Positions 4,437 through 25,509 are shown, numbered from the stretch's first letter. The stretch: DNA of 64,000 bases from an uncultured Gemmatimonadaceae bacterium (GCA_963751275.1 CAVVTZ010000007.1:896001-960000), one strand, 5' to 3'. The notes: generated from the sequence alone by a model not told the origin. Made by a program: numbers and translations.

Positions 4437-4510
4437 GGGCCTGTAGCTCAGGTGGTTAGAGCGCACGCCTGATAAGCGTGAGGTCCGAGGTTCAACTCCT
4501 CGCAGGCCCA
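4437..4510 (+). tRNA. tRNA-Ile (GAT)
   Basis: Acceptor stem GGGCCTG/CAGGCCC, D arm, anticodon loop CTGATAA, T arm CGAGG-TTCAACT-CCTCG, discriminator A; CCA not encoded. Confidence 0.97.
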
Positions 4511-4525
4511 TGGCACGGAAGATCA

Positions 4526-4559
4526 CGCCCCGCTTGAGCTTAAATGCTTGGGCGGGGCG
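4526..4559 (+). terminator. GC-rich hairpin after tRNA, repeated after the tRNA-derived att copies
   Basis: CGCCCCGC...GCGGGGCG stem; equivalents at 11611-11644, 13838-13870, 15212-15245, 19258-19291, 25477-25509. Confidence 0.7.
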
Positions 4560-4627
4560 ATTCACATCGGCGGATTCCGACCGATGGTGTAAGTTCGTGG
4601 TGTACGCGACCGCACGCCCAGGGGAAG

Positions 4628-5686
4628 ATGAGCGCTCTCGATCTCACCATTGCGATCCACGAAGCGGGACACGCAGTAATCGGCATTCGGCGGGGCCTTC
4701 GGCTGCTCTTCATCAAACGCGACTGTGGCAGGGACGACCCCAATCCCTGCTGTGGGTGGGCGCCGCACAATAATCCCCTGGATGTCATCGACATGATGCT
4801 CGCCGGAGAGATCGCTGGAGATCGCCATCACCTCGAGTTCGGGGGCGACCCGCAAGGCGAGCCCGGCCTTCAGCGAGATCGCGATGACGTCGAGGCCCGA
4901 CTGGCAGAAGTTGCACCAGGCATTGAGCAGCGCGCGCTGCTTCGCAAAGCGCGAGCTGCTGTGGTACGGGAGGAGATTGGCTCGAGCGTCGTATGGGGCG
5001 CGATCGAGGAGATCTCCGCCGCTCAGCTTCGCGACGGCCTTCTCGCGGGTGGCACGGTCGCCGCGATCGTCGCGAACCGGGCGCCCTTCCGACCTGCCGA
5101 CGGTCGCTCGCGGACGGGCCGAGCCGCTGGCGAATCGGCGAGCGCACCAGAGGCCGCGGTTCCGCGACGCGCTGAGCTCACGATCGCCTATGAGGAGTGC
5201 AAGGTGGCGCTCCTGCCCCTCCTCCGCGAGCGCGTCTTTCACGTCACGGCGGCTTCGAATCTTGACGCGATCATTGCCTCCGGGTCCCTACTGGCGAATC
5301 CTCCCGATGGCTCGACAGGTCACTTCGGTCGCTACCTCCAGTCCTATGGCCGCACGCTCAATAAGGTTTCATTCTTCGACTATCGGGAGCGGACCGAGGA
5401 GGCACTCGAGGAATCGTTCACCAAGTGCTCTCCGTGGTCCGGACTCCATGCGTGCGATCATCGCATCGCGATTCTGTTCCTGTCGCGGGTTGAGTGGCAC
5501 GCTCTGGAGCGCTGGACGCGCGAAGCGATGATCGCGACGCGGTGGCTCCAGGCTGTGCCGTGGGTCGAGTCGTGGCACGCGAGTCCGGTCCCTCTCAACC
5601 ACATCGAGGAGATTCTCCTTGTCGCCGTCGCTGAACCGACCGACCCTTTTCTACAAGCAATGCTCAAGCGTTCGCGGCGATCGTAG
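4628..5686 (+). CDS. Hypothetical protein: N-terminal HExxH (peptidase M41/M50-like) domain and C-terminal possible ADP-ribosyltransferase-like domain
   Basis: AIHEAGHAV...LAGEIA motif; RVFHVTAASNLDAIIASGSL and VESWHASPVPLNHIEEILLV resemble DarT/DUF4433 strands (by eye). Confidence 0.6.
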   Translation: MSALDLTIAIHEAGHAVIGIRRGLRLLFIKRDCGRDDPNPCCGWAPHNNPLDVIDMMLAGEIAGDRHHLEFGGDPQGEPGLQRDRDDVEARLAEVAPGIEQRALLRKARAAVVREEIGSSVVWGAIEEISAAQLRDGLLAGGTVAAIVANRAPFRPADGRSRTGRAAGESASAPEAAVPRRAELTIAYEECKVALLPLLRERVFHVTAASNLDAIIASGSLLANPPDGSTGHFGRYLQSYGRTLNKVSFFDYRERTEEALEESFTKCSPWSGLHACDHRIAILFLSRVEWHALERWTREAMIATRWLQAVPWVESWHASPVPLNHIEEILLVAVAEPTDPFLQAMLKRSRRS

Positions 5687-22607: not shown

Positions 22608-22692
22608 CGAGGCCCGATCATGCGCAAACTCATTGCACTCGCCGCGCTGGGTGTTTCGCTCGCCCGCGCGTCTCGCCGCGGATGTGATGCGC

Positions 22693-25386
22693 TCACGGCT
22701 TGGCCTTCGCCTTCAGCGCCTGGGTCCAGTTCTCGGTGACGATCAGCTCCACTCCCTCCGCCGCGCCGCCCGTCTCGCGCAGCATCAGGAAGCGGCGGTC
22801 ATCCGGCGCCACTGAGTACATCGTCCGGGAACCCGATGCCACGTAGGGCGCCGCATTGAATAGCGCGCGTTGCTGAGCGGCGCTGAACACCGGGCTCGTC
22901 ACGACCGCTGCGGCGACGAACATTCCCTTCCCATTCCTGAAATACAGCTCTCCACCGCTGTGCGACCAGGCGGGCTCGCTCCCGCCGGCAACCGAGACCT
23001 GCCAGCGCGCCTTCGCGGCGTCGGGGAAGGGGCGCACATACACCTCTTTCGCGCCGGTCTCGTTCGAGACGTAGGCGAGCCACCTGCCGTCGGGGGAGAC
23101 CGCCGGCGAGGTCTCCCGCGCCGGACTCGCGACGAGCGGCGCGAGCGCGCTATCCCCCTCCTTCACGCCGAAGATATCTCCATTCCCCGGTTCAAGGGTC
23201 TGCCGCCGCGCGACGTACCATTTCCCGGCCGGTGATTCCTCAATCTCGGAAAAGGTCCAGGACGACGGGAAGAGCGGTCGCGCCGCACTCGCGCCATCGG
23301 CGCTCTTCGACATGGGGACGCCGCCCAAGTTGCCGCGATCCGACACGTACAGCACCGCGCGGCCATCCGCGGACCAACTCGGATGCAGGCTCGAAGTGTC
23401 GCCGAGCGTGAGACGGGAGAACGGTCCGCCAGGGATCCGCTTCACCCAAATGTCGGTGTGCGGTGGCTGCTCGAGCTCCACGGCGATCGCCTTGCCGTCG
23501 GGAGACAGCGCCGCGCCGATGACGTTTCCCTCCGCGCGCCACGTGGAGTCCACCGGTGTGCTCTTGCCCTCGCGGCTCACCCAGTCGATCTCCCGCCCGA
23601 CGGGCTTGGCCAGCCGCTGGAAGACGAGGGTGCCCGAATTGGAGAGCGCGATGCCCGACGAATAGATGGCCGTCTCCAGTCCGTCGTAGAGCACGACCGG
23701 CGCACCGGTGAGCGCGAGCGAGCGTTCGCTGAAGGGGACGGCGAGGAGCTTCCCGTCCGCGGTGACGACGAGGAGGTGGCCGCTCGGGGAGTAGCGCGCG
23801 TAAATGCCGCGGATCAGTTGACGCGGCTCACCAGCGGGGCGGGGGATCACCACGATCTGCTCATCGCCCGGTCCGCCCCCCTGGTAGCGGATGCGGACGA
23901 TCACGCCGCGGCCCCCCGGCAACAGACTCGCGAATTCCACGCCGACCTCACGGCGCGCACTCGAGATCATGTAGAAGCGGTCGATCTTCCCGCCGCCGCT
24001 GGGGATGCGCGCGAGGCCCGAGTCGGTCTCGAAGTAGATGAAGCCGTCGGTACCCCAGGAGGCGGCCGTGGTCGCGGCACTGTCGGTGAGGATGCGCGGC
24101 GCGGTCCCGTCCAGCGGCACCACTCGGATGCTCCGCCCCTCCTTCACGTACGCGAGCTGCTTTCCGTCGGGCGAGAAGAAGGGCTCCGCCATCCCCTCGG
24201 TGCCGGGGATCGGTTCGGGGCGTGCCCTGTCCCGCTCCTTCACGAAGAGACGGATCGTGCCCTCTCCCTTGCCCACATAGACGATGCGCCCGCCATGCGG
24301 GGAGATCGCGAGGAGCGACAGGAGCAGGTTCGGTCCTCCGGGCTGGAACGCCGCCTCAGCGGGGAGGGCGAGACTGTACTGCGTGAGCGGCGGCGGCGCA
24401 CCGCCGCGCAGCCATCCCCACGCCGCCGCCACGGCGAAGATGATCGTCGCCGCGCCGAGGATCGCGGCGAGCCGGCCGCCGCGCAGGCGTGCGGCCGGCG
24501 TGAAGGAGGGGATCGCCATCGTCGCACCCGCGGGATCGACCGCCGGTGCGCCGATGGCGCGAATGAACGTGTCGGCGCTGTTGAAGCGATCCGCGGGCAG
24601 CTTGGCGAGCGCGCGATGCACCGCCGCGGCGATCTGCGGGGGCACCGTGGGCCGCCGCGATGAGAGCGGCTCGGGCGCTCGCGTCACCACGGCGGCGATC
24701 ACGGCTTGCATCGTCGCGCCGGTGTGCGGCGGCGAGCCGGCGATCATTTCATAGACGAGCGTGCCCAGCGAGTAGACATCCGAGCGCGCGTCGAGTTTCC
24801 GCTCGCCCGTCGCCTGTTCCGGGCTCATGTAGTCCGGCGTGCCGACGGACATGCCCGTCCCGGTCATCCGGCCCCGGTCGGCTGAACTCACCGCCAGCGC
24901 GATCCCGAAGTCCGCCACCAGCGCCTGGCCGTCGTGCAGCAGGATGTTCTCAGGCTTGATGTCGCGGTGGATCACGCCGTGCCGGTGCGCGTAATCGAGG
25001 GCGGAACCGACCTCCGTCGCGATGCGCACGACGTCTTCGATCGGGAGCTGCGTCTCGCGCTGGAGGCGCGTGCGCAGGCTCTCCCCTTCGACGAGCGGCA
25101 TCACATAGTAGAGGAACGAATCCACCTGCCCTGAATCGAAGAGCGGGAGAATGTGCGGGTGCTGCAGCGCGGCGGTGGTCTTGATCTCGGCGAGGAATCG
25201 TTCGGCGCCGATCACGGCCGCGAGCTCAGGCCGCAACACCTTGAGCGCGACCTTCCGGTCGTGGCGAAGGTCATGGGCCACGTACACGGTCGCCATCCCT
25301 CCCTCGCCGAGCACGCCCTCGATGCGGTAGCGGTCGGCGATCGCCGCGGCGAGGCGCGCGGGCGGCGTTTCAGGCGAGTCGGTCAC
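22693..25386 (-). CDS. Ser/Thr protein kinase with TM segment and PD40/TolB-like beta-propeller
   Basis: LGEGGMATVY, VALK, HRDIKPEN, DFGIA, GTPDYMSPE; SPDG repeats. Confidence 0.95.
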   Translation of the reverse strand: MTDSPETPPARLAAAIADRYRIEGVLGEGGMATVYVAHDLRHDRKVALKVLRPELAAVIGAERFLAEIKTTAALQHPHILPLFDSGQVDSFLYYVMPLVEGESLRTRLQRETQLPIEDVVRIATEVGSALDYAHRHGVIHRDIKPENILLHDGQALVADFGIALAVSSADRGRMTGTGMSVGTPDYMSPEQATGERKLDARSDVYSLGTLVYEMIAGSPPHTGATMQAVIAAVVTRAPEPLSSRRPTVPPQIAAAVHRALAKLPADRFNSADTFIRAIGAPAVDPAGATMAIPSFTPAARLRGGRLAAILGAATIIFAVAAAWGWLRGGAPPPLTQYSLALPAEAAFQPGGPNLLLSLLAISPHGGRIVYVGKGEGTIRLFVKERDRARPEPIPGTEGMAEPFFSPDGKQLAYVKEGRSIRVVPLDGTAPRILTDSAATTAASWGTDGFIYFETDSGLARIPSGGGKIDRFYMISSARREVGVEFASLLPGGRGVIVRIRYQGGGPGDEQIVVIPRPAGEPRQLIRGIYARYSPSGHLLVVTADGKLLAVPFSERSLALTGAPVVLYDGLETAIYSSGIALSNSGTLVFQRLAKPVGREIDWVSREGKSTPVDSTWRAEGNVIGAALSPDGKAIAVELEQPPHTDIWVKRIPGGPFSRLTLGDTSSLHPSWSADGRAVLYVSDRGNLGGVPMSKSADGASAARPLFPSSWTFSEIEESPAGKWYVARRQTLEPGNGDIFGVKEGDSALAPLVASPARETSPAVSPDGRWLAYVSNETGAKEVYVRPFPDAAKARWQVSVAGGSEPAWSHSGGELYFRNGKGMFVAAAVVTSPVFSAAQQRALFNAAPYVASGSRTMYSVAPDDRRFLMLRETGGAAEGVELIVTENWTQALKAKAKP

Positions 25387-25433
25387 GCGGGCAAGTTGCA
25401 GGTGATGTACGGGAGTAGCAAGCGCCCTGACGC

Positions 25434-25509
25434 CCGAGGTGGAGCTCCGCGCTGGTACGGTTCAACTCAAAGGCCACGCCCCGCCCGAGCTTCGCGCTCG
25501 GGCGGGGCG
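25434..25509 (+). repeat. Degenerate att-like copy (T arm with 21-nt insertion plus hairpin)
   Basis: CCGAGGT-GGAGCTCCGCGCTGGTACGGT-TCAACTC followed by the CGCCCCGC...GCGGGGCG hairpin. Confidence 0.7.

Follow-up and report, generated by a model that had tools for sequence, protein, structure and literature searches.

Six integrase-less modules at a tRNA-Ile gene of an uncultured Gemmatimonadaceae bacterium: a probable decayed tandem accretion of integrative elements

In the genome of an uncultured soil Gemmatimonadaceae bacterium, a tRNA-Ile(GAT) gene is followed by six gene modules that are split from one another by direct copies of the 3′ half of the tRNA. This array occupies positions 4437–25509 of the stretch of DNA that we analyzed, a 64-kb segment that we refer to as “the window” (positions 896001–960000 of contig C7; all coordinates in the array are counted within the window). 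The source assembly, G000, is a metagenome-assembled genome (MAG) of 3.1 Mb in 14 contigs, with 68% G+C and a rated completeness of 83%. We conclude, with a probability of about 0.75, that the region is a decayed tandem accretion of integrative elements specific for tRNA-Ile, and that its modules are remnants resembling cis-mobilizable elements (CIMEs), i.e., elements that have kept their attachment (att) sites and cargo and lost the genes for their own movement. Here, we describe the att sites of the array, the integrase family to which they belong, the signs of decay, and the alternative explanations that we weighed.

The tRNA-Ile locus is an integration hotspot. Both flanks of the array, the right one from position 25529, are kept in congeners of G000, and the content between the flanks is different in G002, G004, and G005, the last of which is a single-contig genome. 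Homology of the right flank to G004 and G002 begins at 25529. A search of the whole G000 assembly finds the repeat units that make up the array at the tRNA-Ile locus only. The compared genomes are different species; beyond the congeners, G008 belongs to another genus of the same family, G026 to another family of the same order, and G075, G104, and G156 to other genera.

The tRNA gene is the sole tRNA-Ile(GAT) among the 45 tRNA genes found in the assembly. A first-pass annotation of this DNA, made from the sequence by itself, placed direct copies of the tRNA 3′ half at 11554, 13758, 15132, and 19178. Exact-match mapping confirms these four; in all copies, the anticodon loop marks the beginning of identity to the tRNA. 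Positions 31–55 of the tRNA are reproduced without mismatch at 13758, 15132, and 19178; the first copy has two mismatches when counted from 11552 and is exact from 11554 (tRNA position 33). Positions 56–74 recur with no mismatch at 11577, 13804, and 15178, with one at 19224, and with three at 20954. Between tRNA positions 55 and 56, three copies have a 21-nt insertion, GGAGCTTCGCTCTCCTGCGGA, which is identical in all three (13783–13803, 15157–15177, and 19203–19223) and splits the T-loop part of the tRNA half. The 65-nt unit formed by core and insertion is identical in these copies apart from one mismatch. The crossover may have been in the anticodon loop, which is where all copies become identical to the tRNA, or 3′ of the 21-nt insertion.

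Two degenerate copies had also been reported, at 20787 and 25434. Both are present, with altered boundaries: the former is a 17-nt core stump (20787–20803), fused to the stop codon of a thioredoxin gene and with its 3′ part at 20954, and the outermost copy spans 25428–25468. About 150 nt lie between the stump and 20954, i.e., at the junction of modules E and F, at the point where other copies have the 21-nt insertion. A diverged form of the insertion is found in the outermost copy (~25441–25461) and in L082, a related metagenome contig (~9151–9171), beside the same type of arm (see below). A closely related arm in G005 is without the insertion. ARAGORN additionally called a permuted tmRNA at 4132–4628, spanning the tRNA-Ile gene; this call is probably spurious, because Rfam reports only the tRNA there. 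Across positions 3500–27000, Rfam gave no match except the tRNA.

Two kinds of sequence accompany the tRNA copies. The first is a hairpin of the form CGCCCCGC-N-GCGGGGCG, which occurs 11 times in the assembly. Six of these hairpins are in the array (4526, 11611, 13838, 15212, 19258, and 25477), at module starts and after the outermost copy, as had been noted previously, and their variants differ from unit to unit. Two more hairpins with CGCCCCGC/GCGGGGCG stems are located outside the array, at 41888–41918 and 52120–52148, and are probably ordinary terminators.

The second is an arm of ~130–190 nt, referred to here as the “P arm”, that precedes three of the cores and starts at 13629, 15003, and 19049. 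In an alignment that includes relatives, the order toward the core is two tandem 10-nt repeats, a near-invariant block that contains the palindrome GATCGCGCGATC, then a short hairpin, and the core. The repeats are tandem pairs of GGTGTAAGTT at 13633/13645, 15007/15019, and 19053/19065, ~125 nt upstream of the core. The same repeat is found at 4586, 27 nt past the tRNA hairpin, on what would be the attL (P′) side. With up to one mismatch allowed, GGTGTAAGTT occurs seven times in the window against 0.75 times expected; none of 100 shuffles reaches seven, and all seven occurrences are at att positions. The three P arms are mutually 84–87% identical (80–83% in a 135-nt comparison), and the three units share an identical 41-nt block. 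A conserved arm had been ascribed to each of the first four modules. This is correct for the three arms above; the fourth, before 11554, is a partial case that shares the central block alone with the others and has arm repeats of another type. On the P′ side, the proximal attL (4511–4608) is alone in retaining repeats that match the P arms at 13629, 15003, and 19049. One degenerate site is left after 11554, and P′ repeats are absent after 13758, 15132, and 19178.

The palindromes and tandem repeats of the arms fit protein-binding sites rather than an RNA gene or a 3′ untranslated region, and the arm is a classical attP arm. A search for arm DNA across the family matched at least 12 of 301 genomes, including G000 and the unpublished genome G153, which enters no further result here; the count is a lower bound, since only two candidates were scored per genome. 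A scan of metagenomes for the tandem arm-repeat pattern returned 45 loci, of which 44 are chance matches and one, L082, is a relative.

The same architecture flanks integrase-bearing islands in relatives, which supports the earlier proposal that these are phage-type att sites of a tRNA-targeting tyrosine integrase; indeed, tyrosine integrases are found beside the same arm layout in G008 and G026. In G008 (locus L016), the tRNA-Ile gene (1767–1840) is followed by a hairpin, a minus-strand integrase gene (1983–3227) encoding 414 aa, primase/helicase-like and terminase-like genes, and, 16.8 kb downstream, an arm and tRNA half with the distal core at 18604–18647. In G026 (L015), the tRNA-Ile gene (1418–1491) is likewise followed by a hairpin and a minus-strand integrase gene (1532–2767); the island has genes for two HTH_17 proteins as well as insertion sequence (IS) elements, and the arm and tRNA half are 11.8 kb downstream, with the distal core at 13279–13322. 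The arm repeats are CTGTCGGTTC in G008 and GGTGTCGATT in G026. They are unlike GGTGTAAGTT and unlike each other, but within each element the repeats of the integrase side match those of the distal side. Repeats that match within an element and differ between elements are the pattern expected of the arm-type sites of an arm-binding tyrosine integrase.

Related integrases are encoded at 30 loci in species-representative genomes, 28 of them in Gemmatimonadota records and the others in records titled Chthoniobacterales and Longimicrobium. The tRNA gene just past the 3′ end of int is tRNA-Ile(GAT) at eight loci, tRNA-Ser at five, tRNA-Gln at three, and tRNA-Arg at two, with none within the examined stretch at 12. 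All eight tRNA-Ile loci have the order tRNA, hairpin, two tandem repeats, int. These comparisons identify the cognate recombinase family as tyrosine integrases of ~410 aa and of the arm-binding type. The att site consists of the tRNA segment between the anticodon loop and the 3′ end, a hairpin, a tandem pair of 10-nt P′ repeats on the integrase side, and two to three of the same repeats plus the palindrome block on the distal side. An integrase of the GGTGTAAGTT type was not found among the 30 integrase loci, none of which has GGTGTAAGTT by the tRNA, or in the metagenome pattern scan. Elsewhere, in the genome G122, a full integrase of the family (L033; G122:C1, 3–1040) is encoded ~180 nt from an arm-like sequence (1210–1326), with no tRNA-Ile core nearby. 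G122 has nine matches to the integrase family, several of them fragmentary, and the family may use non-tRNA sites or other tRNA sites there.

The first-pass annotation found no recombinase in any module, and broader searches agree. Pfam searches of 51 open reading frames (ORFs) and 140 stop-to-stop frames of ≥60 aa (4434–21580) detected no recombinase or transposase domain in the array. A six-frame scan of the genome with PF00589 gave three matches, none of them in the window. In the window, a hidden Markov model (HMM) specific for the integrase family reached a best E value of 6, at a position not beside a core, and detected no integrase stump in the six modules. No recombinase or transfer genes were matched by Pfam, by the family HMM, or by PHROGs and NCBIfam on the 16 unnamed ORFs, for which the latter two gave no matches at all. 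The array has no intI, attI, or attC. In a six-frame translation of G000, which is 83% complete, the integrase-family HMM gave no match at E values up to 1; tblastn with the tRNA-Ile integrase reached a best E value of 0.004 in G000, on a Xer-like gene elsewhere. An integrase alignment search matched none of five congeners, including the single-contig G005, with a positive control that was detected in five of five cases. A third tyrosine recombinase (a 379-aa frame at G000:C9:727001–727600, ~1.2 kb from the contig end) is not of the tRNA-Ile integrase family and has no tRNA or GGTGTAAGTT nearby.

The array can be compared with autonomous islands on the one hand and with CIMEs on the other. A tyrosine integrase gene adjoining the target tRNA is present in G008, in G026, and at eight of the 30 related loci, and absent from the window; the window does have a copy of the tRNA 3′ part, in direct orientation, at the distal end. 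Like CIMEs, the modules are bounded by attL and attR sites of the kind that site-specific integration generates, with tRNA copies at each boundary, P arms before three cores, P′ repeats at 4586, and the same layout as in integrase-bearing islands. Also like CIMEs, they are without integrase, excisionase, and transfer genes.

Signs that may point to derivation by deletion come partly from G000 and partly from relatives. In G000, which has no integrase stump, P′ repeats have been lost or degraded at the inner junctions, module E has had its arm deleted, and lspA is truncated; in G005, a full-length lspA is located beside a homologous arm. Comparable arrays contain at least seven core copies in G104, three in G075, the tRNA plus two in G156, and the tRNA plus three in G005. 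In two of these arrays, C-terminal integrase stumps directly follow cores: at 11148–11753 (with an internal stop) and 4667–4909 in G104 (contig C37), and at 9618–10124 (by the tRNA) and 22152–22403 in G156. Together, G156, G104, and G122 have 24 matches to the integrase family; most cover the C-terminal part of the profile only, and short fragments (40–100 aa) are frequent. It appears that integrase genes of this family are usually truncated from their 5′ side.

These observations suggest the following history. Several integrative elements would have used the tRNA-Ile(GAT) gene as their target in succession. Each integration would have restored the tRNA and displaced the previous 3′ half downstream, with the newcomer's P arm now before it. 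Through later internal deletions, the integrase would have been lost, along with most P′ arms and whatever excision or replication genes there were. The P arms, the core copies, and cargo genes in intact form would have stayed, leaving a chain of integrase-less modules bounded by att sites. Given a cognate integrase, excision would most plausibly involve nested composites that extend from the tRNA to 13822, 15196, or 19242, rather than single modules, because only the proximal attL keeps P′ repeats that match the three P arms.

A different source for the repeats would be the locus itself: arm-core-hairpin units might have arisen in place, by unequal homologous recombination or by duplication of one attR, with the cargo having come by other routes. 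The shared layout of three units, their identical 41-nt block, and the confinement of such units to the tRNA-Ile locus are consistent with this. However, modules B and C have arms that are 86–87% identical to the G005 arm and only 83% identical to each other, which argues that they were acquired or diverged independently and were not recently duplicated in place. Moreover, the hairpin is not the same variant in every unit, module A has arm repeats of a different type, no cargo is duplicated between units, and comparable arrays in other genera hold integrase stumps. We consider an origin in place to be very unlikely. The idea that the array is a misassembly of a repeat-rich metagenomic region is extremely improbable. 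It draws on the nature of the genome, a MAG of 14 contigs, and on the length of the repeats (65–250 nt), but comparable arrays are found in the single-contig G005 and in other genera, and the repeat copies are not collapsible duplicates because the arms differ by 13–20%. In addition, short contigs of run X1, which may be the source sample, match 4468–4618, 15200–15351, and 18982–19158 without mismatch. Two soil runs had a small word share (0.08 and 0.05) and yielded 18 and 36 contigs of 151–239 nt at low depth and without joints or bridging pieces; these are uninformative on circles, excision, or module polymorphism.

Several observations weigh against a simple accretion followed by free decay: (i) there is no integrase stump in the six G000 modules, whereas random deletion would leave some, as in G104 and G156, and an integrase may sit elsewhere in the genome, of which the assembly covers only 83%; (ii) the P arms are well kept, and core and insertion are near-identical in three copies while the arms differ by 17–20%, which suggests constraint or gene conversion rather than free decay; (iii) the outermost copy, by the native flank, has the 21-nt insertion, which is not predicted if this copy is the original tRNA end; (iv) variation at the locus is high, and what lies between the conserved flanks is completely different in G004 and G002; (v) module A is chimeric, because it combines P′ repeats of the GGTGTAAGTT type with a P arm that has GCTGTCCGTT and GCTGCCCGTT (GCTGYCCGTT type). 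With at least one such module, the history goes beyond one element per module. Points (i) to (iv), together with the closeness of arms B and C to the G005 arm, keep mobilization in trans or in cis alive, although gene conversion among tandem repeats, together with repeated visits of related elements, can also explain them.

Mobilization in trans was the interpretation of the first-pass annotation, in which the modules are minimal non-autonomous units (att site plus cargo), moved by integrases that are encoded elsewhere or incoming, and stacked in an integron-like array on phage-type att sites. Besides the lack of any recombinase or stump in the six modules, the conservation of P arms with their arm repeats and palindrome, the constancy of core plus insertion in three copies, and the variation of locus content among congeners, three comparisons are favorable to this interpretation. 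First, the gene pair of module E, encoding an ArsP-type permease and a thioredoxin, is also found in L082 (80% identity over 1334 nt), where the next features are an intact arm of the same type, an insertion-bearing core, and a hairpin; the ~7.5 kb of this contig upstream has other genes and no core copy, indicating the module in another organism. Second, a kinase module is common to the G000 and G104 arrays: the kinase domain of module F (24508–25365) has 56% protein identity to a kinase encoded between two G104 core copies (L038; G104:C37, 14980–15837), in the same orientation relative to the cores. Third, the module B arm is 86% identical to the G005 arm over 135 nt (92% over 124 nt in another alignment), which equals or exceeds the identity of flanking genes (74–86%).

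Nonetheless, movement of the modules in trans is unlikely. The inner attL arms are without the P′ repeats that are found in eight of eight autonomous elements, such that arm-dependent excision of single modules is improbable. Neither the five congeners nor G000 yielded a member of the cognate integrase family. Several genes make up a module, and one gene is encoded on the opposite strand. Since the compared genomes are different species, turnover of the locus need not be fast. The description of the modules as units built for trans mobilization is not supported, given that ordinary islands share the att layout, that arrays in relatives contain stumps, and that the scaffold is damaged, with the arm of module E and part of lspA gone. 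Integrase remnants inside modules, which the first-pass annotation itself had named as a sign against its cassette model, are found in the arrays of G104 and G156, not in G000 itself, and they count against that model. A more general version, which is quite unlikely, is that the tRNA-Ile locus of Gemmatimonadaceae functions as a cassette platform. Modules of P arm, core, and hairpin would then be excised, reshuffled, and passed on by the integrases of transient elements, and the insertion-bearing core would be a dedicated recombination site. If true, such a platform would be a phage-att analogue of the integron. No new mechanism is established by the locus, and decayed tandem accretion is the reading that we favor.

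The modules hold two to five genes each, and the kinase gene of module F is on the minus strand (Table 1). As had been reported, the cargo is unrelated from module to module; to the cargo listed at that time, we add a C-terminal fragment of lspA. The first ORF of module A (4631–5686), directly past the attL arm repeats, encodes 351 aa with an HEAGH (HExxH) motif and is unmatched in Pfam, PHROGs, and NCBIfam.

Table 1. Coordinates of the tRNA-Ile gene, att-related features, and modules in the window
Feature	Coordinates	Strand	Remarks
tRNA-Ile(GAT), attB-bearing gene	4437..4510	+	ARAGORN and Rfam
Hairpin CGCCCCGC...GCGGGGCG after the tRNA	4526..4559	+	Equivalent between tRNA and int 3′ end in integrase-bearing relatives
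attL (P′) arm-type repeats: GGTGTAAGTT at 4586, degenerate GGTGTACGCG at 4599	4586..4608	+	Position and spacing as in integrase-bearing islands; no int after
Module A: HExxH hypothetical (4631-5686), MacB/FtsX-type permease (5708-8290), DUF2723/TMEM260-like (9273-10331), unnamed ORFs	4511..11553	+	
Module A distal arm: tandem repeats GCTGTCCGTT (11427) and GCTGCCCGTT (11439), shared CAGATCGCGCG block (11489)	~11427..11553	+	
Core copy, tRNA positions 33-74 without insertion (11554-11595), and hairpin (11611-11644)	11554..11644	+	
Module B: small ORFs without match in Pfam, PHROGs, or NCBIfam; lower G+C, 57-63%; P arm 13629-13757	11596..13757	+	
Core copy with insertion (13758-13822) and hairpin (13838-13870)	13758..13870	+	
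Module C: brnT (13968-14276), brnA (CopG-type antitoxin, 14260-14577), lspA C-terminal fragment (14626-14940); P arm 15003-15131	13823..15131	+	
Core copy with insertion (15132-15196) and hairpin (15212-15245)	15132..15245	+	
Module D: unnamed ORF (15693-16481), ABC ATPase (16540-17253), unnamed 553-aa ORF (17250-18911); P arm 19049-19177	15197..19177	+	
Core copy with insertion (19178-19242; 1 mismatch in 3′ part) and hairpin (19258-19291)	19178..19291	+	
Module E: ArsP-type permease (19407-20537), small thioredoxin (20554-20793); distal arm deleted; stop codon inside 17-nt core stump	19243..20803	+	
Degenerate core 3′ part (20954-20972, 3 mismatches) and degenerate hairpin	20954..21023	+	
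Module F: DUF1254/DUF1214 protein (21129-22607, +), Ser/Thr kinase with PD40 repeats (22693-25386, -)	20804..25427	.	
Outermost degenerate core with insertion (25428-25468, 80% identical to insertion-bearing core) and hairpin (25477-25509)	25428..25509	+	Right end of array
M20-family peptidase gene	25536..27038	-	First conserved chromosomal gene right of array

The locus is a clear example of foreign genes being gathered at a tRNA gene, in a soil phylum that has been little studied, and being kept after the mobility genes have been lost. The retained cargo includes transporters, a toxin-antitoxin pair, an ArsP permease with a thioredoxin, and a kinase. The att architecture, consisting of core, hairpin, co-varying arm repeats, and palindrome block, provides a means of delimiting islands, as well as their relics, in MAGs. 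A search of the literature on genomic islands, on CIMEs and accretion, and on integrase-less tandem islands found, within the collection searched, no description of a locus of this type in Gemmatimonadota.

With integrons, the array shares only an ordered row of cargo units, split by recombination sites, at one chromosomal locus. Instead of intI, attI, and attC, it has direct, tRNA-derived cores with arms. Its modules are multi-gene, of mixed orientation, and have their own regulatory regions, whereas attC cassettes are bounded by imperfect inverted repeats and are mostly single promoterless ORFs in one orientation.

The likeness to classical tRNA islands and prophages, with att sites of the lambda or P4 type, is closer. 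It comprises an identity block that starts from the anticodon loop, an arm-flanked core with repeated arm-type sites, duplication of the tRNA 3′ part at the far end, and, in the integrase-bearing relatives, an integrase gene by the tRNA. Williams (2002) is said to have proposed a sublocation scheme for tRNA-integrating elements. The window differs from such islands in having att scaffolding and cargo without an integrase, and three copies with the 21-nt insertion. That tRNA fragments mark attR sites is a general phenomenon (PMC9897764).

The ssrA islands of Dehalococcoides are also similar. These are tandem islands past a single-copy t(m)RNA gene, with direct repeats of its 3′ end and strain-variable content, and 15 of them are without an integration module and were proposed to be CIMEs or fixed remnants (McMurdie 2011, PMC3146451). 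The Dehalococcoides islands use a serine recombinase, DsiB, and a 20-bp repeat (PMC3146451), whereas the family associated with the present array is one of tyrosine integrases, the tRNA segment is 44 nt long, and the arms, of ~130–190 nt, have arm-type repeats.

Relative to the CIMEs of Streptococcus, the presumed parents of the modules described here are small, tRNA-Ile-specific islands of Gemmatimonadota rather than integrative and conjugative elements (ICEs) or integrative and mobilizable elements (IMEs) of Firmicutes. Six modules follow one another without an intact element among them, the inner attL arms have degenerated, and cis-mobilization is putative. Pavlovic (2004) reportedly described both CIMEs and tandem accretion in Streptococcus. 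In the process referred to as “accretion”, attL and attR survive the decay of an integrated element, next to which another element then integrates (PMC5704250). The streptococcal elements and the modules of this array have in common that integration and transfer genes have been lost, that attL and attR have been kept, and that the elements are arranged in tandem at the 3′ end of the target gene (PMC5704250).

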